DNA of 64,000 nt from a bacterium (GTDB taxonomy: Bacteria; JAJVIF01). The DNA is taken from contig JAJVIF010000001.1 in the NCBI GenBank assembly GCA_022072165.1, positions 1,489,353 through 1,553,352 of the forward strand. Reading direction: 5' to 3'. Below are positions 24,929 through 64,000 of this stretch, piece after piece (positions within the stretch are counted from its first letter, which is position 1; each line of letters opens with the position of its first letter). Both the position numbers and the translations under genes were made by a program. The notes under the pieces are model-generated. The model was not told the DNA's origin. It worked only from the letters and a program-made list of their open reading frames with translations, and searched no databases.

Positions 24929-25204
24929 TTATCCCAGTGTGCCATTTCGTGGCAGGGGATCATCCTCATCGCGGTCCTGCGCGGGGAGTCGACGCTCCAG
25001 AGCGCGGAGGGTGGCGACCGACGCCTGGGATGCATCCTGATTGGCACGCTGGACCTGTTCCAGCAACTCGTGCCGCAGGATGCTGACCTCGCGGGGCGCG
25101 TTGATGCCGACTTTGACGACATCCCCCCGGACATCGACGATGGTGATCTCGATATCCTTGCCGATGAGGATCTTTTCGTTGGTTTTGCGGGAGAGGACGA
25201 GCAT
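24929..25204 (-). CDS. csrA: Carbon storage regulator CsrA (flagellar FliW-partnered type)
   Basis: '[47 protein letters not shown]' is canonical CsrA. Located directly after fliW. Confidence 0.9.
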
Positions 25205-25225: not shown

Positions 25226-25738
25226 TCACTGGTCGCTGGCTGCCGCAGCCCGCCAGGCCTCGAGGGCTGGCAGGAGGGGCACCGCAATCCGGTGGTCGCT
25301 CCGTTCACAGATGAGCTGCCACGCCTCTCTGGCAACGGGGTCCAGGACGAGGGGGGCGAGCAGATTCACCGTGATGTGCTCTGGCTGCTGGGGGGGGACT
25401 GTCACTACACAGAGTGCGTGCAGTTCCGTGCGTCCCCCCAGCTGCAGCCGCAGCACATCCGACTCGTCCACTTCGATGCCAAAGTCCGGAAAAATCGTAG
25501 CCGGTTGCAGCAACGGAAAGGCAAGTTCCGGTTCCTGGGCGCTTTGCCACCAGTAAAAGAGACTCCCCGGCTCCGGGGCGATCAGGACAAACCGCGCCAG
25601 ATCCGGAAAGCCGTGCATCCCCTCGGGCATGGCGTAGATCTCCTCATGGGGGACCGTCAGCACCCCGAAGCGGGTGGTGGGAATGGTCGCCGCCGGGGGT
25701 GGGGTCACCACCGGAACGGTTACACGAACGACGGACAT
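25226..25738 (-). CDS. fliW: Flagellar assembly factor FliW
   Basis: 'FGVLTVPHEEIYAMPEGMHGFPDLARFVLI…FYWWQS' is a DUF180/FliW signature. Sits between flgL and csrA as in Bacillus. Confidence 0.85.
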   Translation of the reverse strand: MSVVRVTVPVVTPPPAATIPTTRFGVLTVPHEEIYAMPEGMHGFPDLARFVLIAPEPGSLFYWWQSAQEPELAFPLLQPATIFPDFGIEVDESDVLRLQLGGRTELHALCVVTVPPQQPEHITVNLLAPLVLDPVAREAWQLICERSDHRIAVPLLPALEAWRAAAASDQ

Positions 25739-30894: not shown

Positions 30895-30922
30895 ATATCG
30901 GCTCCCGCCACCCGTTTCTTGA
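30895..30922 (-). promoter_or_regulatory. Sigma-28 (FliA)-like promoter upstream of flgN–flgK–flgL
   Basis: On the minus strand: TCAA-N16-GCCGATAT. Compare class III consensus TAAA-N15-GCCGATAA. Confidence 0.4.
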
Positions 30923-46963: not shown

Positions 46964-49900
46964 CTAGCGGGCTACGCTGATCCCTGACCCGGTCCCCTGC
47001 TGTTGCGCGCCGAGTCTGGCGGTCAGGAACTGACTGTCCCGCTGGAGCCGCGACAGCGCTCGCTCCACCTCCACGAACTGCTGCCGGATGCGGGCTTCGT
47101 AATCGGCCAGCCGCTCCTCAGCCCGACTCAACTCGGACCCCAATTCGGCGAGGCGCTGGTCCAGCACGCCGCCGGTGGTGATCTGCCGGTTAATGAGCCC
47201 GTTCAGACCGGTGAACTCTTTGAGGCTGTTCTCCAGACGACGTGCAATCCCTGCGGCAGCCTGGGCATCAGCCCCGAAAGTCGAGCCGCTGCTCAGGCCG
47301 ATGGTGTCCTGCAAACTGGCGCCGGCGTTGAGGTCCTGAATGGTGATGAGGGCTTTGCCGACCGTCTCGGTCCGGCTGAACTCCAGCCGCCCGGCGCTGT
47401 TGAGTCGAACGCCAATTTTGTCCGTGAGCCCCGCCTGTCCCAGGGCCGTGGTGATGCGATTGACCAGTTCGGCGCTGGTGTAGTACCCGGCATCAAGGGT
47501 GATGGTGGCGACATTGAGGGCATCGCCCACCGAGAACGAGAGGCGGCTGCCGAGGGTCAGTCCGAAATTCAGGTTGTTCTGGCTGGCGATGACGACTTTG
47601 GATTCCTGCGGATTGCCGAACAGCTGCTGCACGTCATTGGCACGATCTGTCAGCGACTCCCGCAGGGTCGCGTTGCTCTGCAGAGCCGTGAGAATCTCGT
47701 CGGGGTCCGTGGTGTCGGCCACCAGCCAGCCCTTTTGCAACTGGTCGTTCAGCACGCTGGTCCCGACACTTCCGGTATTCAGTCCCAGAGCACCCAGTCG
47801 ATTCAGTGCGGAAGTCACCGACACCACCGGCTCCAGGATCGCCCGGCGACTCTGGGTGACCGCCCGACGAATCGTCTGATCCCGATAAATGAGATCCCGC
47901 GTCAGCAGGGCTTCCCGTCGTGATTCGTATTCATCGATTTCCGCGAAGGTCAGGCTCTGCCGCTGGCGCTCCGTCAGTTCCCGGGTCTGTTCCACCTCAT
48001 CATCGTTCAGCGGCCGGGGATTCAGCAGCAGCAGGGTCTCGTTGTAGCTCACCACGAAATCCCGAATTGCGAGCAGCGACTTCTCGGTATCAACCGTGAT
48101 GTCGATGGCGACCGGGTCGGCACTGACACCAGTCAGATCCAGGGTGACATCGGGGAGAACATCCTTGATGGTGTTGGTGTTCCGGGTGTAGCTGACCCCA
48201 TCCAGGGTGAACTCGGCACTCCGACGCGGCGTACCGATGGTCGTGGTTACGGTCGGCGTGTTGGTCAGTCGCAGCGCAGCGAGGATGTTGGACGAGTCGG
48301 TCACGGCTCCGACCGTGATGCCGGTGGCGGTCGTGGACTCATCCAGCTTCTGCACCAGGCTGAGACGGTCCGTGACCGGGTCATAAGCGGCGGTGACTCC
48401 TGCCGGACTGTTGTTGATTTTCGTGATCAGCGACTGCAGCGTATCGACCCCAGAATCTACGGTCAGCGTGACACCGTTGATCGTGAATGTGCCGCTGGTG
48501 GGGGTGATGCTGAGATTTGATCCCGAAAGCGGGCTGGTGAGCGAAACAGTCCCGGCATCCGCGCCGGGAATCGAAGTGCCGCCGGCAGCTTCCAGCAGTC
48601 CGGCGATCCGCAGGAAATTCGACGTGTCGCCAGGCCCACCGAGGCGGATGCTCCCCTGCCCCGGCGTCGCGTTTTCCAGCGTGATGCGATCCAGCGCTTC
48701 GTCGTAGCGCGCGATGACTCCAGCCCCAGAGCTGTTGATCAGTCCCAGAACGCTGATCACGGTCTGGGTCGCGCTGGTGATGGCGATCACTTTTCCATTG
48801 ATGGTGAACGTGCCGTCAATGTGGTCAATGGCGTTGGTCGATGAGGACTCGACGGTTTGTGCGAACCCGGCATTGATGAGCCCTCGACCGATATCCAGGG
48901 GGGGCGTAGTGGTATTCGTCGACGCGCTGATCCCCGCCTGCCCCAGAATCGCGGCTTTCGTGGCGGGGGCCTGATTCAGTTCGCTGCTCTCGACGGTCCG
49001 GATCTGGGCGACCCCGGCGCTAAACGTGTTCCCCCCCACGCCATTGATCGTGATGCCAGGGATCAGTGTCGTGATGGCGGTCCCTTCCGCCTGACTGATG
49101 ACCGTGCGCTGTTCGGGGCCGCCATTCTCAGGAGTAAAGACCGACACTGCCGTGACATCAGCCGCCAGGGTCGTGGCGTTAGTGGTGGTGACATCGGTGT
49201 CGATGCCAGCGGTGGGATCAAGCAGCGTCTCAAGGATGCCCCCAGCCACATCGGTGAAGCGGAGATTTTCTCCCCCCCGGTTACTGCTGATTCTCAGAAA
49301 GACGCCACCGCCACCATCGTCCACGAGGGTCGCGGTCACCGAAGGGACCTGCCCATTGATCGCCGCGACCAGGTCCTGGACGCTGCTTTGCTCGGTGAGT
49401 CCGAGGATCACGACAGGCGAGGCTCCGCCGGTCCCGGCATCGCGGTCGATGGTGAATCGATTCCAGGTCGTGAGGCCGGGAATGGACCCCAGACGATCCT
49501 GTGGCTGGAGGGAGACGGTCCCGGTGACGGAACCTGCGAGGCCTTCGGAGAAGGTCAGCCGATGGCTCCCCCGGGCAGGGACCGAGAAGGCGGTACTGGT
49601 CGCAAGCTGGCGGGTTTCGGCAGCACCGGTCACCGAGCGGAACATCACCGGCAAAGTCAGGGTGTTCCCGGTCGGGCCACCGTTGTTGAAGGTCAACCCG
49701 AGGCGGGTCTGGCTGGGACCAGCGACCGCATCTGTGACCACGAGCTTGCCGTTTTCGATGGTGGCGAGGGCAGTCCCGGCGTACGCCGTGTTAATCGCTG
49801 CCACCAGATCGTTCAGCGTATGCCCGGCCCCATAGGTGTAGTTCGTGGTGACCAGCGTGCCATCGGGCTGGGTGACATTGAGCGTAATGGAATCCAGGCC

Positions 49901-50827
49901 ATCATCCAGCGACGCGCCGGTGAGCTGATCGAGATTGTTCAGAGGTGTGGTGCCATCGGCGACGACGGCGCTGTTGCCCGTCGTGAAGGTCACGGTCCCG
50001 GTCAGTTCCTGCGCGACTGCTGCGCCGCTTGCCTGGGTGGTCCCGAGGCCAATCGTGAAAGTCGAGCCTGAGAAGTCCGCGTCATTGAAGGTGAGTCCGC
50101 TCAAGGCGAAGTTCCCTGGCTGCGTGATGTCAGTTTCGGTCAGGACCAGTTCGCCCCGGGAGCCGAGCGTCACCTGCACTTCACCACCAAAGGCCGACTG
50201 GATCGTCTGCGTCAGTCGCTGGAGGGTATCGGTGCCGTTTCCCGCGAAAGTGAATGTGGCATTCACCGGTGTGCCATCTTTGCGGGAGCCAGCGATCGTG
50301 ATGGTGTCACCGGCGGTGACCTGTGCAGCGCCGCGCCCTGCCTGCAGGGTCTGGGTGAGCAGGTCGGTGGCTACCGCCCGGGTCCCGCTGAGCTGCTCGC
50401 TGCTGACCTGGATGTTGGAAATCCCGGCAGTGTTCCCCTGGGCGAGGAGCGCCGCCGCCCGGTCGAAGCTCCTGTCTGCAAGTCCGCTGACCGCCCGGGC
50501 ACCCTGTGCCAGTTGTGACACGGTCAGAATCGACTTCCCCGCCGTGGCGTTCAGCCCGGCGGTGATCCGCGCAATCGCTGGATTCGAAACCGCTGCTTTT
50601 TTGCTGAGGTAGGTCGACTCAAGGCGGAGGGCCAGACTGGTCCGTTGCAGCGACAGGAGCTGTGTATTCGCCAGCTGCAGCGTGGACTTCTGTTGCCTTG
50701 CCTGCGTGATCCGGGTCCCCAGAGCCGTGACCGGGAAGCGTCGGGCATCCACGATGGCGCTGACGATGGAGTTGGTGTCGATGCCGGAGGCGAGTCCGCC
50801 GAAGGTGACCGGCCCAAAGTTGACCAT
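46964..50827 (-). CDS. fliD: Flagellar filament cap protein FliD (giant, 1287 aa)
   Basis: N-terminus 'FGGLASGIDTNSIVSAIVDARRFPVTALGTRITQARQQKSTLQLANTQLLSLQ'. C-terminus 'GVLDQRLAELGSELSRAEERLADYEARIRQQFVEVERALSRLQRDSQFL'. Huge Thr/Gly-rich central region. Confidence 0.85.
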   Translation of the reverse strand: MVNFGPVTFGGLASGIDTNSIVSAIVDARRFPVTALGTRITQARQQKSTLQLANTQLLSLQRTSLALRLESTYLSKKAAVSNPAIARITAGLNATAGKSILTVSQLAQGARAVSGLADRSFDRAAALLAQGNTAGISNIQVSSEQLSGTRAVATDLLTQTLQAGRGAAQVTAGDTITIAGSRKDGTPVNATFTFAGNGTDTLQRLTQTIQSAFGGEVQVTLGSRGELVLTETDITQPGNFALSGLTFNDADFSGSTFTIGLGTTQASGAAVAQELTGTVTFTTGNSAVVADGTTPLNNLDQLTGASLDDGLDSITLNVTQPDGTLVTTNYTYGAGHTLNDLVAAINTAYAGTALATIENGKLVVTDAVAGPSQTRLGLTFNNGGPTGNTLTLPVMFRSVTGAAETRQLATSTAFSVPARGSHRLTFSEGLAGSVTGTVSLQPQDRLGSIPGLTTWNRFTIDRDAGTGGASPVVILGLTEQSSVQDLVAAINGQVPSVTATLVDDGGGGVFLRISSNRGGENLRFTDVAGGILETLLDPTAGIDTDVTTTNATTLAADVTAVSVFTPENGGPEQRTVISQAEGTAITTLIPGITINGVGGNTFSAGVAQIRTVESSELNQAPATKAAILGQAGISASTNTTTPPLDIGRGLINAGFAQTVESSSTNAIDHIDGTFTINGKVIAITSATQTVISVLGLINSSGAGVIARYDEALDRITLENATPGQGSIRLGGPGDTSNFLRIAGLLEAAGGTSIPGADAGTVSLTSPLSGSNLSITPTSGTFTINGVTLTVDSGVDTLQSLITKINNSPAGVTAAYDPVTDRLSLVQKLDESTTATGITVGAVTDSSNILAALRLTNTPTVTTTIGTPRRSAEFTLDGVSYTRNTNTIKDVLPDVTLDLTGVSADPVAIDITVDTEKSLLAIRDFVVSYNETLLLLNPRPLNDDEVEQTRELTERQRQSLTFAEIDEYESRREALLTRDLIYRDQTIRRAVTQSRRAILEPVVSVTSALNRLGALGLNTGSVGTSVLNDQLQKGWLVADTTDPDEILTALQSNATLRESLTDRANDVQQLFGNPQESKVVIASQNNLNFGLTLGSRLSFSVGDALNVATITLDAGYYTSAELVNRITTALGQAGLTDKIGVRLNSAGRLEFSRTETVGKALITIQDLNAGASLQDTIGLSSGSTFGADAQAAAGIARRLENSLKEFTGLNGLINRQITTGGVLDQRLAELGSELSRAEERLADYEARIRQQFVEVERALSRLQRDSQFLTARLGAQQQGTGSGISVAR

Positions 50828-50929
50828 GGGCGATGCGCTCCTGTGATGGGCTAACGGTCTCTATCGGCAGTGGCTGCAAAAGCTGGAGCACCGGGAGTGC
50901 CGTGCTTTGGGTATAAGTCAAAAGCCGGC

Positions 50930-50960
50930 CCGGAGCGCGTCCGGACCGGCCAGCACAGAG
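50930..50960 (-). terminator. Rho-independent terminator after flagellin 1
   Basis: Minus strand: GCCGGTCCGG-ACGCGCT-CCGGGCCGGC followed by TTTTGACTT. Confidence 0.7.
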
Positions 50961-50985
50961 ACAGGTCTAGGGGACTGCCGCGAGA

Positions 50986-53580
50986 CTAGCCCCGAAATAA
51001 CTGGAGGACGTTCTGCGGGAGCTGGTTGGCCTGCGCCAGGATGGCGGTGCCCGCCTGCAGGAGGATCTGCGACCGCGTGAACGCGATGGTCTCCTCCGCG
51101 ATGTTGAGATCCCGAATCCCCGACTCCGAAGAGGCGAGATTCTGCCGGGTGATGTCGAGGTTCCGGATGGTGCTCTCCAGGCGGTTTTGCACCGACCCCA
51201 GGTTGGACCGGAGGCTGGAGACCTTGTCGATGGCGACATCTACCGACGTGATCGCGGCCTGGGCGCTGGCGGAGTTCGCCAGGATCAGGCCCCGAATCCC
51301 CAGGCTGTCCGAGGAGACCCCGGATATCGCCAGCGTAAGATCCTGCCCCTGATTCGCGCCAATCTGGAAGTTGATGGCGTTGGGCACCAGGTGGAGGAAA
51401 GTGGTCCCGATGAAGTCGGAAGTCACCGAGATCGTGGGCTTGGCCAGGGGGTCGAGGTTAATCGGCCCGCGGGTGTCATTCGCCCCCGGTCCGGGGACCG
51501 GGTCGAGCTTGAAGCCCTGATTGGTGTTGAACTTCAGTTCCACGCCCCGAATGACGCCGCGAACAGTGCCATCCTGGGTGATGGTCTCGTCGATCAGCGC
51601 CCCGGTCTCGATATTCACGACACTGACTTTGAAGGTCGCCAGCTTGCTGTTCTGGATGGTGAAGAGCGACAGCGCGTTGATGGTCTTCTCATCGCCGATG
51701 AAGGCGAGTTCCGCGCCGGGCACCGGACTGGTGATGGAGATGGTTCCCTTCGCCGGACCGATGAGGTTGAAGTTCACCAGGTTCGGGAAGTTGCCACCCG
51801 CCAGCGTGTCCTCGAGGTTGAGGTCCGAGGTCCGGTTGGGATCGGCGATGGCGAGCGACAGCTTGCCGACCAGGTCCTGCACGGTGTCCGTGGCGTTGAG
51901 GAAGATCGTGGTGCGCCGTCCGGACCCCGGCACGGCCAGTCCGATTTCCACGGTGTCGCGTCCCAGGAAGACATTCTCTGCCTGGAAGCGGCTGATGGAC
52001 CGGAGCTGCGTGTCGAGCTGGGCCACCAGCACGTTGTTGGTCGACGTGTGGAAGATCGCGGTCTCGCCCGCTTCCAGGATGGCATCGAAGCTGATGCGCA
52101 GCCCCTGGAGGGTATCGAGATTCAGTGCGGCGGCCGTACCGGCGCGTCCGATAGAGCCGGTGCCGGACACCGAGCCCGTATCGAGGTTTGTCACCCGGTA
52201 GGTGCGATTGGACAGCGCAGACACCCGGAAGGTGTAGCTGCCGGACACCGCCGACACCTGCACGATCCGGCCATACTGCGCGAACTCGTTCTGCCCCGCC
52301 TTGTTGAAAACGATCTCATCGGTGCCGGTGGAAACACTGGCATCGAAGCGGACATCGATTTCACCCGTGGTGCTGTCGCCGAGCGTGAAGATGCCGCCCG
52401 CGACGTTCTCAATGATCCGGTTGCCGTTGGCGGTGATCGCCACCGACGCGGCATCGATGAAGGCTCGGGTGATGTCTGCCGCGCCCGCTGCGACCGAGAA
52501 AGCGGAGAAGCCGAGGTCGAGCTGGGAGCCGGAAGTATCGACATCTTCCAGGCCGAAGAACGAGAGCGCGATGCTCTGTCCCGCCGCGATCGAAACGGCC
52601 AGTTGCCCGGTGCCGGTCACACTGAACGCGCCGTTGGCACCAATGGAGAAGGCGATGCTCAGGAAGGCGGCCACACTGGAAAGCGTCGTACCCGCGGTGA
52701 TCAACAGCGCGGCATCGACAGTCGAGCCGTTCACACGCTCGCCGCGGACCCGCAGACGGTCTACACCGAGGGTCAGCTCCTTGGCGTTGAAAGTCCCCGC
52801 CAGGTCGTCCGCAGCAACAGCCACAGAGGTCCCCAGCACCGAGATAGTCGCGCTGCCATAGGAGACCAGGAGGCGGCCATTGGTGGTAGTGCTCTGGATT
52901 TCCAGCTCATCAATGCCGATCTGGGAGCCGGTGGCGTTCCGGAAGGAGGCATTGTTGAGGTAGGTGGTCAGCCCGTTGAACGACCCGACCCGATCCTCAG
53001 TGGCGATGGTGTTGAACTGGTCGGTCTTGTAGGTCGCCAGTTCCGGCGGCGCCAGCAGGGTAGTCCGGATCTGGAAGTTGCCACCTTTGCCAACATTCCC
53101 CAGGATGTTGACCTGGACAGTCGAGGGGTCATCCAGGGAGTAGAGGGCCGCAGCGGACCCATCGAGGAGCCGCTTGGTGTTGAACTCCGTGGTCCGGGCG
53201 ATCCGGTCGACCTCGTCGATCAGCTGGTCCACTTCCTTCTGGATTTCGAGGCGGTCGCTGGAGGTGAGGACTCCGTTCGCCGCCTGGATCGCCAGTTCGC
53301 GGATCCGTTGCAGGATCGTGTTGGTCTCGGCCAGCGCCCCTTCCGCCGTCTGGAGGAGGCTGATCCCCTCCGAGGCATTCTGGGACGCCCGGGCGAGTCC
53401 CCGGACCTGCGCCCGCAGGCGCTCCGAAATCGTGAGACCGGCGGCGTCATCCGCCGCCCGGTTGATTCGCAAGCCGGTGGAGAGTCGTTCGACGGATCGC
53501 TCCAGGTGCCGGCTGGTCTGCGCCAGACTGCGGGTCGCATTCAGCGCAATGATGTTCTGATTGATCTGCAGGACACCCAC
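50986..53580 (-). CDS. fliC: Flagellin (giant, ~865 aa), paralog 1
   Basis: GTG start at 53580 with GGAGG 10 nt upstream. N-terminus 'GVLQINQNIIALNATRSLAQTSRHLERSVERLSTGLRINRAADDAAGLTISERLRAQVRGL'. C-terminus 'RSNLGSVQNRLESTIRNLDITRQNLASSESGIRDLNIAEETIAFTRSQILLQAGTAILAQANQLPQNVLQLF'. The track ORF extends upstream without support. Confidence 0.9.
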   Translation of the reverse strand: MGVLQINQNIIALNATRSLAQTSRHLERSVERLSTGLRINRAADDAAGLTISERLRAQVRGLARASQNASEGISLLQTAEGALAETNTILQRIRELAIQAANGVLTSSDRLEIQKEVDQLIDEVDRIARTTEFNTKRLLDGSAAALYSLDDPSTVQVNILGNVGKGGNFQIRTTLLAPPELATYKTDQFNTIATEDRVGSFNGLTTYLNNASFRNATGSQIGIDELEIQSTTTNGRLLVSYGSATISVLGTSVAVAADDLAGTFNAKELTLGVDRLRVRGERVNGSTVDAALLITAGTTLSSVAAFLSIAFSIGANGAFSVTGTGQLAVSIAAGQSIALSFFGLEDVDTSGSQLDLGFSAFSVAAGAADITRAFIDAASVAITANGNRIIENVAGGIFTLGDSTTGEIDVRFDASVSTGTDEIVFNKAGQNEFAQYGRIVQVSAVSGSYTFRVSALSNRTYRVTNLDTGSVSGTGSIGRAGTAAALNLDTLQGLRISFDAILEAGETAIFHTSTNNVLVAQLDTQLRSISRFQAENVFLGRDTVEIGLAVPGSGRRTTIFLNATDTVQDLVGKLSLAIADPNRTSDLNLEDTLAGGNFPNLVNFNLIGPAKGTISITSPVPGAELAFIGDEKTINALSLFTIQNSKLATFKVSVVNIETGALIDETITQDGTVRGVIRGVELKFNTNQGFKLDPVPGPGANDTRGPINLDPLAKPTISVTSDFIGTTFLHLVPNAINFQIGANQGQDLTLAISGVSSDSLGIRGLILANSASAQAAITSVDVAIDKVSSLRSNLGSVQNRLESTIRNLDITRQNLASSESGIRDLNIAEETIAFTRSQILLQAGTAILAQANQLPQNVLQLFRG

Positions 53581-53837
53581 GTCGGTGATTCCTCCATGAA
53601 TACCGTGTTGGTGATGGGCCCCGGGGAAAATGCAACGACGGCGAGCGGCTGACCTGGGCTTCAGTCCGACTCCGTCGGCGCAGGAAGCCTGGCAGCGCTC
53701 ACCGGCGACTGCGCGGGGCGCGGTACTGGCCCTCGCGTTGCCATCCCTGACAACGCGACGGATGTCCCGCAAGGTGGGGTGCCCTCCTGGCAGCCGCATC
53801 CTAGCAGGGGACCGGGAACTGCTCCGGTCCGTTCCCC

Positions 53838-53864
53838 GGTATCGGCAGCCAGCCGAGGGCCTTG
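53838..53864 (-). promoter_or_regulatory. Sigma-28-like promoter of flagellin 1
   Basis: Minus strand: TCAA-N15-GCCGATAC. Identical architecture upstream of flagellin 2. Confidence 0.55.
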
Positions 53865-53989
53865 AGCCAGGAAATGAAGAAAGGTGGGGCTGGCACTCGA
53901 ACAGCCACTGGCGGTCACACTGCGTCTTCAGGGCGTTCAAACTGAAACTGCGATGTAAGAAAATTTACTGAATCTCATGCCGAAACCCC

Positions 53990-54018
53990 TTGACGCGGCC
54001 TTAACGAGACGGCATATT
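53990..54018 (+). promoter_or_regulatory. Sigma-70-like promoter for Cys-rich cassette 1
   Basis: TTGACG-17 nt-CATATT about 40 nt upstream of ATG 54059. AT-richer context than the surrounding sequence. Confidence 0.4.
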
Positions 54019-54058
54019 GACGCCAGTTGTTATTTCCAGTGCATCTAGGAGGCCTGCC

Positions 54059-54511
54059 ATGTTGTTCAGAGTGTTCCTCGTGATCCTCTGTACGCTGGGT
54101 TTCTCAGGATCGACTCTCGCGCCCGCCCAGGCGGCGGACTGCTGTTGTTACCGGACCAGTGTCGTGCTGTGGGAGGACTGGTGGTATTGCCAGGTGGACT
54201 GCACACAGCAGGACCCCGCAGAGCTGTGCAAAATCAGGAAGCGCTGCCAGGGCTATACCGTCTCAGGAAAGTGCAAAACGAGCTGGTTCAGTTGCCTGGG
54301 GCACACGATGCTCTCGTGCGGATCAGCACCGGTCACCGGACAAGTCACCTGTGAGTATGAACTGGTGAATCCGGAAGATCCCAACTGTGTTGCAGACCCG
54401 GAGCAGATCGCGCTCTGCATCAACATCGACTGCCCAACTGCACCGCCGCCAGGCGAGTACCACTGCAATCTGGGCGGACCCTGCTGTGACACAAGTGGTA
54501 ACTGCTCATGA
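54059..54511 (+). CDS. Secreted small cysteine-rich protein (CCCYR family), copy 1
   Basis: GGAGG RBS. Signal peptide 'MLFRVFLVILCTLGFSGSTLAPAQA'. Mature ~125 aa with ~18 Cys: 'DCCCYR…YCQVDCTQQDPAELCKIRKRCQGYTVSGKCK…CCDTSGNCS'. Paralog of 55785..56240. Confidence 0.75.
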   Translation: MLFRVFLVILCTLGFSGSTLAPAQAADCCCYRTSVVLWEDWWYCQVDCTQQDPAELCKIRKRCQGYTVSGKCKTSWFSCLGHTMLSCGSAPVTGQVTCEYELVNPEDPNCVADPEQIALCINIDCPTAPPPGEYHCNLGGPCCDTSGNCS

Positions 54512-55569
54512 AGCCCGAGCGTACCGTTGTCGCACATCTGTTCAATCGGAAGGAGAGTCCTGAATTGCGTACCCTGATCCTGTTCGTTTTGTGTCTGGTG
54601 TTCGCGGGGTGCTCGGCGAAGCGCACCAACAACACCACGACATCGCAGGATGTTATCGCTGCACCAAACCATGCCCTGACTCTGGTGCAGCAGTTCACGC
54701 CGGCTGATGAAGAGGCTCAGTGGTACCTCGCGGGGGACCCCCGGGCCATCGCGTTTGTACAGAGCAGCCGGATGAGCAGTGCTTTCGAATGGGCCATCAC
54801 TGGCTACCTGCGGGCGTATGGGCATCTGCCAGCCACTGTGGATGATCTGCTGGAGAGTGGCCTGGTGCTCTTCACACCGACTCGCCCGGATGGCACCCCG
54901 TATCCGTTCCAGGTGGTCCAGACGCTGCCCGAAGAGCCATCGACCGAAGCAGTACTGCTTGCCAAGGAAGGGGCGATCCTGCGGGGATGGTTACCTCCCG
55001 TCGATGCCAGCGTGAAGGCACGCCGCATCTATGTCAATCTGGATAAGCGCTACCAGATGTACAACTCGCGGCAGACGGTCATGCCGACCGTACCGCAGGC
55101 TGTCCTCGCGAATCGGGTCGCGCAGCAGGCATCCATCGGGGGCCTCTCACCAGGTGCCTTCGCCAACCAGTTCCTGCATCAGTCGGATGGACTGGAGGAG
55201 CAACGGGCGGTCGCGCTGCTGGCTGCGAGCATCGGACTGATGAGCATGGATGCGCAGGCCCGGGGTCGGGTGGCGACCTCGCTGGAAGCCGTCCTGCAGG
55301 CGCATCGTCTCGCGTTTCGCGATGTCGCGACCGTCACCGGAAATGTCGATCTGCTGGACTATCCTCTGGGAGTGCAATTGCGGACCTCGACAGACCGGAA
55401 TCTGCTCCAGATCGCCATCAAGCCGAGTATCGAGGGACTGGATTACCAGTTGCTGAAGTTCATGCCGGATTACTCACTTGGGCGCGTCACGAAGCTGGAT
55501 TTGTCAGGCGATGTCGCACCGCAGGAGGCCGGGTGTCACGACCTGGTCGCGACCCTCGTGCTGCAGTAG
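54508..55569 (+). CDS. Putative lipoprotein partner of Cys-rich protein, copy 1
   Basis: ATGA overlap with the upstream gene. Lipobox 'LVFAGC'. Paralog of 56275..57273: shared '…G(Y)YR..G.LP….LLE.GL…' region and C-terminal 'GC.(E/D)(V/L)(L/V).TL(L/V)L'. Confidence 0.65.
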   Translation: MKPERTVVAHLFNRKESPELRTLILFVLCLVFAGCSAKRTNNTTTSQDVIAAPNHALTLVQQFTPADEEAQWYLAGDPRAIAFVQSSRMSSAFEWAITGYLRAYGHLPATVDDLLESGLVLFTPTRPDGTPYPFQVVQTLPEEPSTEAVLLAKEGAILRGWLPPVDASVKARRIYVNLDKRYQMYNSRQTVMPTVPQAVLANRVAQQASIGGLSPGAFANQFLHQSDGLEEQRAVALLAASIGLMSMDAQARGRVATSLEAVLQAHRLAFRDVATVTGNVDLLDYPLGVQLRTSTDRNLLQIAIKPSIEGLDYQLLKFMPDYSLGRVTKLDLSGDVAPQEAGCHDLVATLVLQ

Positions 55570-55607
55570 TTTCCCCCAGAGCGAGAGGTGTGACGGGGAA
55601 GTGGCCG

Positions 55608-55645
55608 AGCCCGGGAGTCCGCTCCCGGGCTCGCGTGTTGCTGGA
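55608..55645 (+). terminator. Possible terminator after cassette 1
   Basis: Stem GAGCCCGGGAG/CTCCCGGGCTC with loop TCCG, followed by GCGTGTTGCTGG, which is only weakly U-rich. Confidence 0.4.
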
Positions 55646-55712
55646 GGGGGAATGAGCCAGCTTCCTGTGCAGTCACAGGCTGCAAATTACCCAGGAAAGC
55701 CGACTTACTTAG

Positions 55713-55747
55713 TTGACAAGAGAGAGAGAGAGAGAGAGAGAATATCT
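55713..55747 (+). promoter_or_regulatory. Putative promoter of Cys-rich cassette 2 with (AG)11 tract in the spacer
   Basis: Consensus TTGACA at 55713-55718, then (AG)11, then AATATCT. The spacer between -35 and the candidate -10 'ATATCT' is about 23 nt, against an optimal 17. Confidence 0.45.
55719..55740. repeat. (AG)11 dinucleotide microsatellite
   Basis: Perfect 22-nt AG tract read directly from the sequence. No other dinucleotide tract of this length occurs in the window. Confidence 0.95.
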
Positions 55748-55784
55748 CCACTCATAGAACGTCGAGCGTAGGAGGTCTTACAGG

Positions 55785-56240
55785 ATGCGCGCGTACTTCG
55801 CTTTGCTGAGCACGCTGATGGTTCTCTTCCTTTTCGCCATTCCTTCTGAAGCTTCGCAGCAGTGTTGCTGCTACAGAATTGTGAGCTTTAGCTGGATTGG
55901 CCTAAACGTATGCGACGTTGACTGTACTGAAGCTGACCCCCCAGAGCTTTGTGAAGTGGAAAAGTACTGTTGGGGGACCAACGTCAACGGCAAGTGCAAG
56001 AGCCACTCTGGGTCTTGCGGAATTGGGAACTGGACGCCTACGAACTGTGGTTCGACAGGGCAGTATGGTTCCTATACGTGCACACTCACACCAACTAATC
56101 CCAACGACCCGGCCTGCTTCGATACGGAAGAGGAACTACGCCTCTGTATTGAAGTAAACTGCTTACCGGACCCCAATCCCACCTCATACACCTGCCCGCT
56201 GGGTGGCACCTGCTGTCACGCAAACGGGAACTGCAAATAG
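55785..56240 (+). CDS. Secreted small cysteine-rich protein (CCCYR family), copy 2
   Basis: GGAGG RBS. Signal peptide 'MRAYFALLSTLMVLFLFAIPSEA'. 'QQCCCYR…VCDVDCTEADPPELCEVEKYCWGTNVNGKCK…CCHANGNCK'. Cys positions align with copy 1. GC visibly lower (~50%) than the window. Confidence 0.75.
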   Translation: MRAYFALLSTLMVLFLFAIPSEASQQCCCYRIVSFSWIGLNVCDVDCTEADPPELCEVEKYCWGTNVNGKCKSHSGSCGIGNWTPTNCGSTGQYGSYTCTLTPTNPNDPACFDTEEELRLCIEVNCLPDPNPTSYTCPLGGTCCHANGNCK

Positions 56241-56274
56241 CCCACTCTTTTACTCAAGACTGGAGGTCTTCGCC

Positions 56275-57273
56275 ATGAAGTTCACCCCGATTCTCCTGAT
56301 CTGCGGCGTCGTGTTGATGGGCTGTCAGCAGGCCCGCGAGCAAGCTGCACCCGCGGCACCAAAGGAACCCACCGCCGCACCCGTTGCACAGGGTTTTGAG
56401 CCTTCCAATGCCATCTCTCGAGGATTGCTGGCAGGCGATATGGCCAGCCGGCAGACGGTTCGCACGAGTCTTCTCAAGGGCGAGTTGATGCACGCCGCGC
56501 TGGGGTACTACCGAATGATGGGCGAGTTGCCATCGCACGCAGCGCCACTGCTGGAGCAGGGTCTGCTGATGCACACCACCACGGACAGCAGCGGTCAGGC
56601 GATGCCCTGCCAGGCGGTCGACTCGCTGCCAACGGAGGCGGCCGCAGACCGGATGCTCCTTGCGATCGAAGGCGACCGGCTGCGGGCCTGGATCCCAGCT
56701 CTGGGAGAGGGAGCCCCTGCCCGCATTGCGGAGATTGCGATGTCCGGTCAAGTGCAGACACGGGCAGTCAGGGAGATCGGGCAACTGCCACTGCAGGATG
56801 CCGTTCTGCTAAAAGAGGAGTTGCGGCAGGCCGCCGCCGAGTCAGGCGGGCCTGCCAACGCCGGAGTGAATCAGTACATTCATCGTTCCCGGGGTGCTGC
56901 AGAGCAGCGACTGAGAGCGCTGAACTGGGCGAGCCTCGGCGTGTTGAATCGCGGCGCCGCGATCCTCGGACGCGCCCCGGAATCGTATGGGGAGGTGCTC
57001 CCCATGCTGGGACTGGCACCGTTGGGGTATCGCCTGGAAGATGGTCCAGTGAAGCTGCTGGAACAGCCGCTGGGTGTCCAGTACATCGCGACCCTGGATC
57101 GTCAGCGGGTGCTGATGTATCAGAAGCCCTCCATGCCTGCGCTGGACTACCAGATGCTGCAGTACGTCCCTGATGCGCGGACTGGGGAAGTCGCCATGTC
57201 CGAAGTGGGCGACACCATTGTTCCGGAGAGTTCAGGCTGTACCGAGGTACTGGGGACGCTGCTGTTGCCATAA
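56275..57273 (+). CDS. Putative lipoprotein partner of Cys-rich protein, copy 2
   Basis: GGAGG RBS before ATG 56275. Lipobox 'VLMGC'. Paralog of 54508..55569. Confidence 0.65.
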   Translation: MKFTPILLICGVVLMGCQQAREQAAPAAPKEPTAAPVAQGFEPSNAISRGLLAGDMASRQTVRTSLLKGELMHAALGYYRMMGELPSHAAPLLEQGLLMHTTTDSSGQAMPCQAVDSLPTEAAADRMLLAIEGDRLRAWIPALGEGAPARIAEIAMSGQVQTRAVREIGQLPLQDAVLLKEELRQAAAESGGPANAGVNQYIHRSRGAAEQRLRALNWASLGVLNRGAAILGRAPESYGEVLPMLGLAPLGYRLEDGPVKLLEQPLGVQYIATLDRQRVLMYQKPSMPALDYQMLQYVPDARTGEVAMSEVGDTIVPESSGCTEVLGTLLLP

Positions 57274-57308
57274 GCCTGGTCCGCCATTGCTCTTCCAACG
57301 ACCCTCGA

Positions 57309-57341
57309 TGCCCGGGAGGAACCTCCCGGGCATTTCGTTTT
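57309..57341 (+). terminator. Rho-independent terminator after cassette 2
   Basis: GCCCGGGAGG-AA-CCTCCCGGGC followed by ATTTCGTTTT. Confidence 0.75.
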
Positions 57342-57352
57342 CCCCACACACA

Positions 57353-57393
57353 CAAAAGAGCCCCGGGACGGGAGTGACCTCCCGGACCGGGGC
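57353..57393 (-). terminator. Terminator for flaG (convergent)
   Basis: Minus strand: CCCCGGTCCGGGAGG-TCAC-TCCCGTCCCGGGGCTC followed by TTTTGTGTGTG. Confidence 0.5.
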
Positions 57394-57415
57394 CTTGCGA
57401 TGACTGTGCGTACCT

Positions 57416-57820
57416 TTACGCACTCAGGTCGGTGAGGACTCCCCGTCCCTCCGCCAGAGCGGCAGCGAGCCGCTGCGCTTCTTCGGACGGAATCTGGCGG
57501 AGCACTTCACCGGTGCGGTCGTTGATGATCCGTACTACTACCTGGCCGCTGTCCTGCACGTCGATCTGCGCTTTGATCTCGAAGAGGTCAAAGGTGAGAT
57601 TGACCTTGCGGAGCGCTTCTGCCAGTTCCTGCAGCGAACGGGGCTGCGGCAGGGGTGGAGCAGAAACGGACGGCAAGACAGCCGGCGCTGGCGCGCTGGC
57701 CGCATCTGGCGGCGCAGCAGGCACAGCTGAAACGTCGGCGGACGCGATCACAGGGCGGGCCTGCTTCGCTGCCGGCGCCGGAGCCGGGCGACCCGGACCA
57801 GTGAGGGGGTCAAGAGACAT
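57416..57820 (-). CDS. flaG: Flagellar protein FlaG
   Basis: C-terminus 'NLTFDLFEIKAQIDVQDSGQVVVRIINDRTGEVLRQIPSEEAQRLAAALAEG' is a FlaG family signature. GGGAGG RBS. 50 nt downstream of flagellin 2. Confidence 0.75.
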   Translation of the reverse strand: MSLDPLTGPGRPAPAPAAKQARPVIASADVSAVPAAPPDAASAPAPAVLPSVSAPPLPQPRSLQELAEALRKVNLTFDLFEIKAQIDVQDSGQVVVRIINDRTGEVLRQIPSEEAQRLAAALAEGRGVLTDLSA

Positions 57821-57870
57821 CTCGCCACCTCCCTATCCCGTGTGCCGTCGCTCTTGCCATAGCCGTACGG

Positions 57871-60462
57871 CTACCGGAAGAGCTGCAGCGCGTTCTGCGG
57901 CAGCTGATTGGCCTGCGCCAGGACCGCCGTCCCAGCCTGCAACAGGATCTGGTTGCGGGTGAAGGCGAGGGTCTCCTCCGCGATGTTGAGGTCGCGGATG
58001 CCGGATTCCGACGCCGCCAGATTCTGTCGGGTGATCTCCAGGTTCCGGATCGTGCTCTCCAGGCGGTTCTGCACGGACCCAAGATTTGACCGGAGGCTGG
58101 AAACCTTGTCGATAGCGACATCGACCTTGGTGATCGCCGCCTGCGCGCTGTCGGTGTTCGCCAGAATCAGGCCTTTGAGGCCCAGGCTCTGGCTGGAGAC
58201 GCCCGCGATGGCGAGGGTCAGATCCTGTCCCTGATTCGCGCCAATCTGGAAGTTGATGGCGTTGGGCACCAGGTGCAGGAAGTTGGTGCCGACAAAGTTC
58301 GACGAAATCGAGATCGTCGGCTTGTCGAGCGGGTCGAGGTTGATGGGGTTGCGGGTGTCGTTCTGGCCGGTACCGTTCACCGGATCGAGCTTGTACCCCT
58401 GGGTGGTGTCGAAGTTGATCTCCACGCCCCGGATGACACCCCGGACGAAGCCGTCGGTGGTCTTCAGGGACTGCACCAGGGCTCCCGACTCCACATCCAC
58501 AATGCTCACCTGGTACGACGGGAGCTTGCTGTTCTGGATGGTAAAGAGGGAGAGGGCGTTGAGGGTCTTCTCATCGCCGATGAAGGCGAGTTCGGCCCCC
58601 GGCACCGGGCTGGTGATGGAGATGGTCCCCTTTGCCGGACCGGTGAGGTTGAAGTTCACCAGGTTCGGGAAGTTCCCCCCTGCGAGGGTGGCTTCGAGGT
58701 TGAGGTCGTTGGTCCGGTTCGGGTCGGCGATGGCCAGCGAAATCTTGCCGACCAGGTCCGCCACCGTATCGGTCGCGTTGAGATAGATGGTGGTGCGGCG
58801 TCCCTGACCGGGGACCGCGAGTCCGATTTCCACGGTATCGCGCCCGGTGAAGACCCCTTCCGCCTGGAAGCGGCTGATGGACTTCAGCTGGGTGTCGAGC
58901 TGGGCGACCAGCACGTTGTTGGTGGAGGTGTGGAAGATCGCGGACTCGCCCGCCTCCAGGATGGCATCGAAGCTGAGGCGCAGGCCCTGCAGCGTGTCGA
59001 GACCCAGCGATGCGGCAGTCCCGGCCCGTCCGATGGACCCGGTCCCGGAGACCGAGCCGGTGTCGAGGTTCGTCACGCGGTAGGTCCGGTTCGAGAGCGC
59101 CGAAATCCGGAAGGTGTAGCTCCCGGAGACCGCCGACACCTGGACCAGCGTGCCGTATTGCGCAAACTCGTTCTGTCCCAGCGTGTTGAAGACCAGTTCG
59201 TCGGTGCCGGTGGTGACATCGGCGCTGAAGCGGATGTCGATCTCGCCCGTCGAGCTGTTGCCCAGGGTGAAGATGCCGCCGGTGACGTTCTCAATGACCC
59301 GGTTGCCGTTGGCGGTGATCGCCACCGACGCCGCATCGATGAAGACCCGGGAGATATCGGAGCCGCCGGCCGCCACGGACAACGGGGTAAACCCGAGGTC
59401 GAGCGTCGATCCCGAGTTGTCGAGATCATCCAGCCGGAACGAGCTGATGGCGATGCTCTGGCCCGCCCCAATCGAGACCGCGAGGGTTCCGGTGCCGGTG
59501 ACGCTGAACGCGCCGTTGGCACCCACGGAGAACGCGAGGCTCATGAAGGCGGCGACACTTCCCAGCGTGGTCCCAGCGGTGATCAGGAGGGAGGCATCGA
59601 CTGCCGCCCCACCGGTGTTGGTCCCGGTCACGCGCAGGCGGTCGACCCCGAGGGTGATCTCCTTCGCATTGAAAGTCCCGGCCAGGTCATCGGCAGCAAC
59701 CGCCACCGAGGTCCCGAGCACGGAGACGGTCGCGCTCCCGAAGGAAACCAGGAGCCGGCCATTGGTGGTGGTGCTCTGGATTTCCAGTTCGTCGATGCCG
59801 ATCGCCGTCCCCGTCCCGCTGCGGAACGTGGCGTTGTTGAGGTAGGTGGTCAGGCCGTTAAACGAGCCCACCCGGTCCTCGGTGGCGATGGTGTTGAACT
59901 GGTCGGTCTTGTAGGTCGCCAGCTGCGGGGCGTCCAGCAGGGTGGTCCGGATCTGGAAGTTCCCCCCCTTGCCGACATCGCCCAGGATATTGACGCTGAC
60001 GGTCGTGGGGTCGTCCAGGGAGTAGAGGGCGGCCGCCGAGCCATCCAGGAGTCGCTTGGTGTTGAACTCCGTGGTGCGGGCAATGCGATCGACCTCGTCG
60101 ATCAGCTGATCGACTTCCTTCTGGATTTCGAGCCGGTCGTTGGAAGTGAGGACACCGTTCGCGGCCTGGATCGCCAGCTCGCGAATCCGCTGGAGGATGG
60201 TGTTGGTCTCCCCCAGCGCGCCTTCCGCCGTCTGGAGGAGACTGATCCCCTCCGAGGCATTCTGCGACGCCCGGGCCAGGCCCCGGACCTGCGACCGGAG
60301 TCGCTCGGAAATCGTGAGACCGGCGGCGTCATCCGCAGCGCGGTTGATGCGCAGGCCAGTGGAAAGCCGCTCGACAGAACGTTCCAGCGCTTTGCTGGTC
60401 TGGGAGAGGCTGCGGGTCGCGTTGAGTGCGATGATGTTCTGATTGATCTGCAGAACACCCAT
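57871..60462 (-). CDS. fliC: Flagellin (giant, 863 aa), paralog 2
   Basis: ATG 60462 with GGAGG RBS. About 85% amino-acid identity to paralog 1 over the full length, including the central domain. Confidence 0.9.
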   Translation of the reverse strand: MGVLQINQNIIALNATRSLSQTSKALERSVERLSTGLRINRAADDAAGLTISERLRSQVRGLARASQNASEGISLLQTAEGALGETNTILQRIRELAIQAANGVLTSNDRLEIQKEVDQLIDEVDRIARTTEFNTKRLLDGSAAALYSLDDPTTVSVNILGDVGKGGNFQIRTTLLDAPQLATYKTDQFNTIATEDRVGSFNGLTTYLNNATFRSGTGTAIGIDELEIQSTTTNGRLLVSFGSATVSVLGTSVAVAADDLAGTFNAKEITLGVDRLRVTGTNTGGAAVDASLLITAGTTLGSVAAFMSLAFSVGANGAFSVTGTGTLAVSIGAGQSIAISSFRLDDLDNSGSTLDLGFTPLSVAAGGSDISRVFIDAASVAITANGNRVIENVTGGIFTLGNSSTGEIDIRFSADVTTGTDELVFNTLGQNEFAQYGTLVQVSAVSGSYTFRISALSNRTYRVTNLDTGSVSGTGSIGRAGTAASLGLDTLQGLRLSFDAILEAGESAIFHTSTNNVLVAQLDTQLKSISRFQAEGVFTGRDTVEIGLAVPGQGRRTTIYLNATDTVADLVGKISLAIADPNRTNDLNLEATLAGGNFPNLVNFNLTGPAKGTISITSPVPGAELAFIGDEKTLNALSLFTIQNSKLPSYQVSIVDVESGALVQSLKTTDGFVRGVIRGVEINFDTTQGYKLDPVNGTGQNDTRNPINLDPLDKPTISISSNFVGTNFLHLVPNAINFQIGANQGQDLTLAIAGVSSQSLGLKGLILANTDSAQAAITKVDVAIDKVSSLRSNLGSVQNRLESTIRNLEITRQNLAASESGIRDLNIAEETLAFTRNQILLQAGTAVLAQANQLPQNALQLFR

Positions 60463-60795
60463 AGTGGTTTCCTCCGTGAAACCCTAAACGTGGGTGAGCA
60501 GCTGCCGAAAAAGAAAATGCGCGTCCGCAGCCCCCGGCGTACGGCTCCGACGCTCCGCGTCTGAAACCTCCGGGGTCTGTGGCACCCGCATCTACGGCAG
60601 CCGTTTGTCGCGATGTCTGTGGAGGCCACCCCCCACGGGATGGCGACGGACGCGCCTCACCCTCCTGGTGCCAGCGTGACCGGCGGGGGCAGACGGCTGT
60701 GAACTCGTCTGCAGCAGATCCTCCGATGACTGTCACCCAGAGCCCCATACCCCGACCGGGCGCCGGTCGCGGCTGAAAATCCGGGTTATCGCTGG

Positions 60796-60822
60796 GTATC
60801 GGCAGCCCGGCTTGAGGCTTGA
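60796..60822 (-). promoter_or_regulatory. Sigma-28-like promoter of flagellin 2
   Basis: Minus strand: TCAA-N15-GCCGATAC, the same element as upstream of flagellin 1. Confidence 0.55.
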
Positions 60823-60897
60823 GGGTCTCGGGGAAATTTTTCCGGAAAATTTTGCCAGTCCTGCCTGACCCGGTGGCACCCCTGATAATCACCCCTA

Positions 60898-62001
60898 ATG
60901 TCCGCCCCCACCCTGGCTTTGGTGACTGACGCTGGCGCGCTCCACGCTCAGCGCTGGGCGATGGCCTTCCGCGACCGGGGCTGGCAAGTCCGCCTTCTCA
61001 CCTGGGGGAGCCTGGCGGACCTGCCGGGCATCGAGACCATCCCCGTACTCGACGCACGTCCAGGCGCGGGTCGGGGCCCCCTGAGTGCGCTCACCGGGTA
61101 CCGCCAGCTCCGGCAGCGCTTGGAGGAGGCGGACCTCGTCCATGTCCATTCCCTGCCGGCGGGTCGCTGGGTGACCTGCCTCACCGGACTCCCGCGACTG
61201 ATGATCACGTCCTGGGGGACCGATGCCATGCCGCGTCAGGGGGCGCTTTCGGCGGCGCAGAAGCGCTGGGTGACCTACGGGCTGCGACAGGCGCAGGCGA
61301 TCGGAGCCTACTCCCAGTTCGCCCGCACCGCCCTGATCCGCCACTACCGCCTGCCAGACGCGCGGGTGCACTGGACGCCTTTGGGTGTCGACCTGACCTG
61401 CTTCGATGCCTCCCGCTTCCCCACTCCGCCAGCGGAACCGCTGGTCATCGGGTTCTTTAAGCACCTGCGCCCCATCTATGGCCCACAGGTGCTCCTGGAG
61501 GCGCTGTCGCTTTTTCGGCATCAGTGGACCGGTCCCTGGGAAGCACGACTCTATGGCGATGGCCCGCTGCAACAGGATCTCGCACGCCGTATCGATGAGC
61601 TGCAGCTTCAGGAGCACGTACGACTCGCCGGACGAGTGCGCCATGAGGACCTGCCAGCGGCAATGGCCGCTTGTCATCTGGTCGTGAGTCCGAGTTTGGT
61701 GGAGGAGTCGCTGGGATTGGCGAGTCTGGAGGCACAGGCGCTGGGACTGCCGGTCATTAACAGCGGTCTGGGAGGGATGCCGGAGACCTGCGTGCCCGGG
61801 GAGTCGGGATTCTTGGCACCGCCCGGCGAACCTGCCGCGTTGGCGTCGCTGCTGTTACGCCTGGCCCGAGACCCGGCATTGCGAGCACAGATGGGGCAGC
61901 GTGGACGTCAGTTTGTGCATGAAGCGGGCTACGTCTGGGCAAAGTGTGTGGATCGGGCAGATGCGATCCAACGATCGCTACTGGTGCCCCGAGAAAAATG
62001 A
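60898..62001 (+). CDS. Glycosyltransferase family 1 (GT4-like)
   Basis: C-terminal 'VVSPSLVEESLGLASLEAQALGLPVINSGLGGMPETCVPGESGFL' is a GT1 motif. Divergently placed next to flagellin 2. Confidence 0.75.
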   Translation: MSAPTLALVTDAGALHAQRWAMAFRDRGWQVRLLTWGSLADLPGIETIPVLDARPGAGRGPLSALTGYRQLRQRLEEADLVHVHSLPAGRWVTCLTGLPRLMITSWGTDAMPRQGALSAAQKRWVTYGLRQAQAIGAYSQFARTALIRHYRLPDARVHWTPLGVDLTCFDASRFPTPPAEPLVIGFFKHLRPIYGPQVLLEALSLFRHQWTGPWEARLYGDGPLQQDLARRIDELQLQEHVRLAGRVRHEDLPAAMAACHLVVSPSLVEESLGLASLEAQALGLPVINSGLGGMPETCVPGESGFLAPPGEPAALASLLLRLARDPALRAQMGQRGRQFVHEAGYVWAKCVDRADAIQRSLLVPREK

Positions 62002-62055
62002 CACCAGCCGCGACATGTCGCGGCTGGGGAGTCACGGCGGTTGTCAGCGTTGCGA

Positions 62056-63898: not shown

Positions 63899-64000
63899 AG
63901 CGGGCGATGCAGCGGCGGTCTGCTGGTTGGAGATCGCGAATCCACCAGCGCCACTGACGAACGGGCTGATGGAAAGGAGCTTGCAGAGTGCCTGGGCGAG

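Follow-up and report, generated by a model that had tools for sequence, protein, structure and literature searches.

Introduction

Why does a bacterium keep two copies of a very large flagellin gene, placed as direct repeats around other genes, and do the two copies vary each other or do they build one filament together? The question is raised by a stretch of 64,000 nucleotides (nt) from an uncultured bacterium (GTDB lineage Bacteria; JAJVIF01; assembly GCA_022072165.1, contig JAJVIF010000001.1 of 1.88 Mb, positions 1,489,353 to 1,553,352, forward strand), here called the window, to which all coordinates below refer. Two flagellin genes in it, fliC-A and fliC-B, enclose the flagellar gene flaG and two cassettes encoding cysteine-rich (Cys-rich) proteins. 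An earlier reading of this DNA, here called the original prediction, described the pair as giant flagellins whose repeats may recombine as a built-in mechanism of antigenic or structural variation. Our analysis makes it probable that the locus houses a stable pair of co-regulated flagellins, in which concerted evolution is slow and incidental.

Results

Two full-length flagellin paralogs in direct orientation

The genes fliC-A and fliC-B are direct repeats with 6882 nt from start to start, and their coding regions are 4.3 kb apart with other genes between them (Table 1). The two proteins shared 86% identity with a single terminal gap. DNA identity was 81.0% when the genes were globally aligned with gaps and 80.8% when they were compared codon by codon without gaps (88%, 93% and 61% at the first, second and third codon position, respectively). 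Per block of 50 amino acids (aa), identity ranged from 60% to 98%, with 92–98% in domains D0/D1 and 76–92% in the outer region, and the least similar block was residues 651–700 (60% identical). The 120 aa differences were mostly located in the outer domains, including 25 charge-changing differences and 38 gains or losses of Ser/Thr. The bulk properties of the two proteins were alike (~90 kDa, no Cys or Trp, 18–19% Ser plus Thr), with isoelectric points (pI) of 4.87 vs 4.78 and nearly equal overall charge.

Two comparison sets were used. L070 is an independent metagenome contig of a related strain with 4–7% DNA difference from the window, and a sister species is represented by A2 (on L074) and B2 (on L075) from JGI sample 3300020195. 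Since L070 showed the identical locus layout (fliC-B, flaG, two cassettes, fliC-A), an assembly artefact is excluded. The mechanical open reading frame (ORF) of fliC-A extends to 53940, while the actual start is the GTG at 53580; GGAGGA lies nine bases ahead of it, and the position is supported by the orthologues, with GTG in L070 and ATG at the same position in L074. The original prediction had claimed paralogy along the whole length, beyond D0/D1, as well as direct repeats flanking flaG and both Cys-rich cassettes. The former was borne out by the protein identity and by the alignment of the two genes, which are in direct orientation with 81% DNA identity over the whole length, and the latter by coordinates, strands and the layout of L070.

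Large flagellins of the Geovibrio type

Pfam Flagellin_N (PF00669) matched over its full profile length at E = 1.6e-43 (A) and 7.3e-44 (B), and Flagellin_C (PF00700) matched at E = 6.9e-24 and 1.3e-24, respectively. A phmmer search against PDB 9AU6, the flagellin of Geovibrio thiophilus (793 aa), gave one alignment that joined residues 4–861 to 3–791 (E = 1.7e-91), and the family profile matched at 5–422 vs 4–433 within a match of E = 3e-148. An AlphaFold2 (AF2) model of fliC-B was built from a 68-sequence alignment; it had a mean predicted local distance difference test score (pLDDT) of 79 and long terminal helices at residues 10–130 and 770–862. The top Foldseek match of the model, by a wide margin, was 9au6_A with E = 1.7e-49, a template modelling (TM) score of 0.50/0.54 and a root-mean-square deviation of 15.8 Å, where a low TM-score is expected if domain orientations differ, the comparison being global. 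The next Foldseek matches were ordinary flagellins, which aligned in the core only with E between 4e-16 and 1e-16. The fliC pair also stands in a context of filament genes (flaG, fliD, flgK/L and fliW). Judged by these matches, both genes are bacterial flagellins of the Geovibrio type, homologous through the outer domains.

The 9AU6 flagellin has domains D0–D5 and forms a 240 Å filament, and its outer domains, assigned to outer-domain cluster #41, are larger than those of any other flagellin solved so far (Nat Commun 2024, PMC11532411). Three flagellin paralogs of 793–801 aa lie close together in the G. thiophilus genome, and condition-specific use of them was proposed by the authors of that study (PMC11532411). 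The statement that such flagellins build thick filaments elsewhere was therefore upheld by the closest solved relative. The word "giant" is, strictly taken, inaccurate: the proteins are very large (863/864 aa) but remain below the published definition of giant flagellins, which is >1000 aa (Thomson et al. 2018, PMC6248924). Dozens of flagellins of ~864 aa at ~60% identity were found in metagenomes, and it seems common in the lineage for a genome to encode at least two large flagellins.

Age, selection and relatives

Between A and B, the synonymous divergence (dS) was 0.74 and the ratio of nonsynonymous to synonymous divergence (dN/dS) was 0.13; in each block of 72 codons, dS was 0.5 or more. 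Against the L070 orthologues, dN/dS was 0.039 (A) and 0.043 (B), at DNA identities of 93.0% (A) and 95.6% (B) and protein identities of 98–99%. Both copies are under strong purifying selection.

In the sister species, the A-type gene is followed by fliD and the B-type gene by flaG, each with the matching leader type. Relatives at 79–80% identity have the same synteny upstream of B, and their branching point lies below the A/B split. Another subclade has the layout fliC1, fliC2, flaG, fliD and forms two groups of paralog orthologues with 92.5% and 100% bootstrap, while within-genome pairs received 0%. In other relatives, only one fliC is present at the flaG-fliD locus, or a solitary flagellin lies at another place in the genome; the former layout, fliC-flaG-fliD, was found in L002 and L091 (57–59% identity). 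Because paralog groups are conserved both in relatives and in another subclade, duplicated large flagellins are recurrent and long-lived in this lineage.

Promoters, leaders and candidate CsrA control

The motif TCAAG-N14-GCCGATA was found exactly three times in the 64-kb window vs 0 expected by chance, each time upstream of late flagellar genes, including both fliC genes (Table 1). It resembles the FliA (sigma-28) consensus TAAA-N15-GCCGATAA. A sigma-54 promoter was considered for fliC-B, where TGGCAC is present in the leader, and was rejected after inspection by eye, as the -12 element is mismatched. The leaders, about 260 nt (A) and about 335 nt (B) in length, could not be aligned with each other except for the promoter, the CCAGGAGGG element and the Shine-Dalgarno (SD) region, while each was well conserved among its own orthologues (A_window/A_L070/A2_L074 and B_window/B_L070/B2_L075, respectively).

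The folds of both leaders were significantly better than those of shuffled sequences (z = -3.6 and -4.3). In both predicted folds, AGGAG was displayed in the loop of a 4-bp hairpin and the SD sequence in the loop of a second one. Covariation of the SD hairpin was scored on 13 distinct flagellin leaders of the family, with 500 shuffles and slid controls. Compensatory changes were found in 4/6 pairs, and the score of 0.49 vs 0.18 in shuffles was matched by 0/500, with the slid controls also lower. The loop A-N-GGAG is conserved family-wide and the stem covaries as AUUC/GAAU, UUUC/GAAA and UCUC/GAGA (loci L001–L003, L071–L077, L080–L091). The SD hairpin is a candidate CsrA operator. Since csrA and fliW are present and GGA hairpins occur in the leaders, a CsrA-FliW checkpoint as in Bacillus subtilis fits the locus, and we infer CsrA-FliW translational control of both flagellins. 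A terminator scan predicted none between fliC-B and flaG, and known RNA families and tandem repeats were not found in 50000–62000.

Probable past gene conversion without signs of recent exchange

Informative sites were compared among four genes, i.e. A and B of the window and A2 and B2 of the sister species. This gave 109 concerted sites (A+B, A2+B2), 84 orthologous sites and 32 cross sites. Concerted and orthologous sites were clustered along the gene (73 runs vs 96 expected, runs test P = 0.0002). Codon-composition bias was considered as the source of the concerted sites and rejected, with GC3 (G+C content at third codon positions) of 0.85–0.88 in all four genes and the excess remaining at GC-neutral sites (56 concerted vs 21 cross, with 35 orthologous). 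The paralog dS values (0.74 and 0.80) were below the orthologue dS values (0.88 and 0.94). Amino-acid sequences, leaders and synteny follow orthology; synonymous sites show within-genome likeness. The clustered mosaic sites, together with paralog dS below orthologue dS, indicate past gene conversion, which would have been old, of short tracts, confined to the coding region and subsequent to the species split. The longest run identical between A and B was 47 nt (permutation mean 30, P = 0.013), and five identical runs of at least 30 nt were present.

Recent conversion was not detected. No 72-codon block has a dS below 0.5, which argues against it, and where both paralogs differ between the window and L070, 7 sites were concerted vs 5 cross (counted by eye), which is no excess. 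The original prediction of gene conversion between the repeats therefore holds for the past, as short tracts, and not for the recent period. It had also proposed recombination that deletes flaG and the cassettes. At 81% DNA identity, deletion by homologous recombination is possible yet expected to be rare. Among the matches from 5.8 billion proteins, no chimeric protein (>90% identity to both copies) was found, and no deletion or variant contig was seen among the close relatives found, with only the 1-kb fragment L092 added by the metagenome scan and the source genome absent from the set covered by the genome scan. Inverted repeats were absent from 47000–64000, and those proteins of the region that were scanned contained no recombinase domain. 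Both copies differ from a promoterless silent donor in having the promoter motif, an SD sequence and an intact ORF under purifying selection, and because both carry the promoter and the SD hairpin, neither is a silent cassette. A built-in variation mechanism is only weakly supported in a locus whose pair, leaders and synteny are conserved in a related strain and a sister species.

The cassettes between the flagellins

In each cassette, a gene for a Cys-rich protein (~150 aa, signal peptide present) is paired with one for a lipoprotein-like protein (~330–350 aa). The two cassettes are paralogous pairs, with 43% identity between the Cys-rich proteins and 33% between the lipoproteins. Some 20 Cys residues are conserved in the Cys-rich proteins, which also have a CCCYR motif. 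Pfam and NCBIfam searches with the cassette proteins returned no match; a word-index search gave only two homologues of the cassette lipoprotein, and the Cys-rich profile found only four representatives among 1.84 billion proteins. One of these four, a cadherin-repeat protein, was treated as spurious, as only a short motif matched. The AF2 model of the cassette lipoprotein was unusable (pLDDT 37). The GC content of the cassettes was 0.56–0.60, below that of the neighbouring genes.

The window and L070 were collinear at 90–93% DNA identity, except for ~1 kb at the first lipoprotein gene (window 54487–55509 vs L070 5367–6386), where no DNA-level alignment was obtained. The first lipoprotein was only 48% identical at the protein level between the two, compared with 75% for its Cys-rich neighbour, 89–93% for the second cassette and 98–99% for the flagellins. 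This local hypervariability of the first lipoprotein gene is the most unusual trait of the region.

A sigma-70-like match (TTGACG-17-CATATT) was also noticed at 53990–54018 on the forward strand, ~130 nt from the fliC-A promoter and in the opposite direction. Its end falls on the initial base of the TTG start (54017) that is mechanically listed for the first Cys-rich gene. If it is real, transcription would start at or inside the ORF, the start codon would lie further downstream, and the cassettes and fliC-A would be expressed divergently from one intergenic region. It is a match to the consensus only, and such matches were not more numerous in the scanned region than in shuffles.

The flagellar gene neighbourhood

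A further block of flagellar genes has the order flgA, flgH, flgI, flgJ-like, flgN-like, flgK, flgL, fliW, csrA. FliD of ~1290 aa is found in relatives too, and the fliC-flaG-fliD layout is conserved in relatives. Since FliD and FlgL are enlarged and glycosylation genes lie nearby (Table 1), the filament set as a whole is enlarged and flagellin glycosylation is likely. Outer domains common to the flagellin and the enlarged FliD/FlgL, as suggested for Geovibrio, were looked for with BLASTP, which gave nothing significant beyond the D0/D1 helices.

The glycosylation island (39405–45967, reverse strand) also includes ORFs without a family match, at 37516–39300, 40546–41229, 43057–43941 and 45910–46923; in relatives, a DUF8042 gene takes the position syntenic with the last of these. 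Between the flagellar basal-body genes and the glycosylation genes, a STAS-domain protein of the anti-sigma-factor antagonist type is encoded (37027–37455, reverse strand).

Table 1. Genes and predicted regulatory elements of the flagellin locus and its surroundings, in window coordinates
Feature	Position	Strand	Details
csrA	24929..25204	-	Pfam CsrA, E = 1.5e-23
fliW	25226..25738	-	Pfam FliW, E = 8.5e-31
flgL, enlarged junction protein, 907 aa	25756-28479	-	
Third sigma-28-like motif	30896..30922	-	Upstream of flgN-like gene and flgK-flgL-fliW-csrA
Nonulosonic-acid genes	39405-43051	-	PseB-like dehydratase, NeuB, cytidine monophosphate (CMP)-sugar transferase; Pfam NeuB, CTP_transf_3, Polysacc_synt_2
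Maf/PseD-like flagellin glycosyltransferase, 681 aa	43922..45967	-	Pfam MptE-like; NCBIfam FlagModPseD domain-level match below curated cutoff
fliD, filament cap, 1287 aa	46964..50827	-	Pfam FliD_N, FliD_C; directly downstream of fliC-A
Strong terminator-like hairpin after fliC-A	50923..50951	-	12 pairs, 9 of them G-C
fliC-A, flagellin, 864 aa	50986..53580	-	MCG3152038.1, GEEBNDBF_01326; GTG start
SD hairpin of fliC-A	53584..53604	-	GGA in loop; predicted fold and covariation
Upstream hairpin, fliC-A leader	53780..53792	-	UGCC-AGGAG-GGCA; predicted fold; conserved in A-type orthologues
Sigma-28-like promoter of fliC-A	53840..53865	-	TCAAG-N14-GCCGATA; ~260 nt upstream; conserved in L070, L074
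Cassette 1	54017..55569	+	Cys-rich secreted protein 54017-54511; lipoprotein-like protein 54508-55569
Cassette 2	55785..57273	+	Cys-rich protein 55785-56240; lipoprotein ~56275-57273, lipobox LMGC
flaG	57416..57820	-	Pfam FlaG, E = 1.7e-13; 50 nt downstream of fliC-B; 98.5% identical in L070
fliC-B, flagellin, 863 aa	57871..60462	-	MCG3152044.1, GEEBNDBF_01332; ATG start
SD hairpin of fliC-B	60466..60483	-	GGA in loop; predicted fold and covariation; candidate CsrA site 2
Upstream hairpin, fliC-B leader	60658..60670	-	CACC-AGGAG-GGUG, GGA in loop; predicted RNA fold; motif kept in B_L070, B2_L075; candidate CsrA site 1
Sigma-28 (FliA)-like promoter of fliC-B	60797..60822	-	TCAAG-N14-GCCGATA; ~335 nt upstream; conserved in L070

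Discussion

In the stable, co-regulated two-flagellin system that we consider probable, a large flagellin of the Geovibrio type with several domains (D0 to about D5) would have undergone a tandem-type duplication long ago, and a single flagellar system would have retained both copies as functional structural genes. Both fliC genes would be transcribed by FliA, late in flagellar assembly, and their translation would be gated by the CsrA-FliW partner switch, with CsrA binding the leader GGA hairpin and the second GGA hairpin that holds the SD sequence. The neighbouring Maf enzyme would O-glycosylate both flagellins with nonulosonic acid, and both would then be exported and polymerised under the enlarged FliD cap (1287 aa) and on the enlarged FlgL junction (907 aa), giving a thick filament. 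As in other bacteria with several flagellins, A and B would most likely occupy different parts of the filament or mix in ratios that depend on conditions. Because the copies are direct repeats at 81% DNA identity, occasional short-tract conversion would have partly homogenised the coding regions, as a by-product of the duplication and not as a programmed variation device.

Several points weigh against this proposal. Co-assembly, spatial arrangement and filament thickness are deduced from the genes and their context. The B-type orthology has 46% bootstrap at the protein level, and A2 and B2, being on two separate short contigs of one metagenome, possibly come from different genomes. The sigma-28 assignment is made by resemblance to the textbook TAAA-N15-GCCGATAA consensus, and a fliA gene was not identified within the 64-kb window. 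Finally, the two candidate CsrA sites of each leader are ~190–200 nt apart, a spacing that exceeds that in the characterised hag leader.

The two flagellins might instead be alternatives, each making a chemically distinct filament for its own condition (surface chemistry, viscosity or phage pressure). Leaders that are specific to each paralog, about 260 nt (A) vs about 335 nt (B), and the concentration of the 120 aa differences in the outer domains, with the 25 charge changes and 38 Ser/Thr gains or losses among them, point in this direction, and so does the condition-specific use of paralogs proposed for G. thiophilus (PMC11532411). However, the promoter motif and both types of GGA hairpin are common to the two genes, which suggests co-regulation, charge and pI (4.87 vs 4.78) are nearly equal, and D0/D1 at 92–98% identity are compatible with co-polymerisation, so that we regard separate filaments as unlikely. 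That one copy is redundant and is being lost, as a neutral recent duplicate, would agree with the single fliC at the fliC-flaG-fliD locus of the relatives L002 and L091 (57–59% identity). It is extremely improbable given a dN/dS of ~0.04 for each copy against its orthologue, a dS of 0.74 between the copies, by which the duplicate is not recent, and reading frames, promoters and SD hairpins that are intact and conserved in both.

Quite unlikely, in our view, is the built-in device for antigenic or structural variation, which would act by deletion of flaG and the cassettes, by chimeric flagellins or by epitope shuffling through frequent conversion. The material for it is there, namely 2.6 kb direct repeats with five stretches of full identity that measure 30 nt or more (47 nt at most), a mosaic and clustered phylogenetic signal and a paralog dS below the orthologue dS, and recombination between the tandem flaA/flaB genes is known in Campylobacter. 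Nevertheless, the strain at 4–7% divergence and the sister species have kept the layout and the two paralog lineages, no low-dS tract was found and the comparison with L070 gave 7 concerted vs 5 cross sites, and neither the search of 5.8 billion proteins nor the metagenome scan produced a chimera or a variant, respectively. Inverted repeats were absent, and neither copy lacks a promoter or an SD sequence; moreover, conversion between two expressed copies homogenises them and does not diversify them. A more speculative proposal takes the flagellin pair and the enclosed DNA as a variable island bounded by recombination, in which the repeats would serve as homology arms, the cassette pairs would be swapped or diverge fast, the paralogs would exchange short tracts, and the targets of the cassettes would be the flagellum or its enemies, with roles such as filament-associated proteins or a defence against flagellotropic phages. 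It is put forward because, between strains with 98–99% identity in the flanking flagellins, one lipoprotein has an identity of only 48%, and we hold it to be decidedly unlikely.

The two-flagellin system leaves the current understanding of flagella unchanged; flagellins of the Geovibrio type, multi-flagellin loci and CsrA-FliW control were already known. It extends the very large multi-domain flagellins of the Geovibrio type to a widespread uncultured lineage, and it offers a clean comparative case of how duplicated filament proteins stay distinct, in which leaders, synteny and amino acids follow orthology while synonymous sites leak by conversion. The locus is of interest mainly for how broad this uncultured family is, for its clean example of partial concerted evolution and for the odd cassettes between the genes. 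If the organism or the genes can be expressed, the flagellins would be of practical value as a target for cryo-electron microscopy and for a study of regulation through the CsrA leaders.

Among known systems, G. thiophilus is similar in its full-length homology, its very large outer domains, its acidic proteins and its several similar-sized paralogs near each other in the genome. It differs in that the identity is only 29% and the length 793 aa vs 864 aa here, and in that the host here is unrelated and uncultured and its pair flanks flaG and two orphan cassettes; the filament of G. thiophilus has been seen (240 Å), whereas the flagellins of the window are known from their sequences. In Bermanella marisrubri and Oleibacter marinus (PMC6248924), the giant flagellins likewise have greatly expanded surface domains, and the filaments of these species are thick, but that class exceeds 1000 aa vs 863–864 aa here, and the best structural relative of the present proteins is that of Geovibrio. 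The regulation resembles that of B. subtilis hag, with csrA and fliW downstream of flgK and flgL and with a GGA hairpin in the leader plus a GGA site that overlaps the SD sequence, while here there are two flagellin targets instead of one, the leaders are much longer with sites ~190–200 nt apart, and the candidate sites are predicted ones. The flaA-flaB pairs of Campylobacter and Helicobacter are also two full-length flagellin genes in direct orientation that adjoin Maf-type nonulosonic-acid glycosylation genes, with a CsrA-FliW system and signs of exchange between paralogs. The flaA and flaB copies of Campylobacter are much more alike, at about 95%, and are served by different sigma factors (sigma-28 and sigma-54), whereas the two genes described here have 81% DNA identity, the same sigma-28-like motif on both and 4.3 kb of genes between them.

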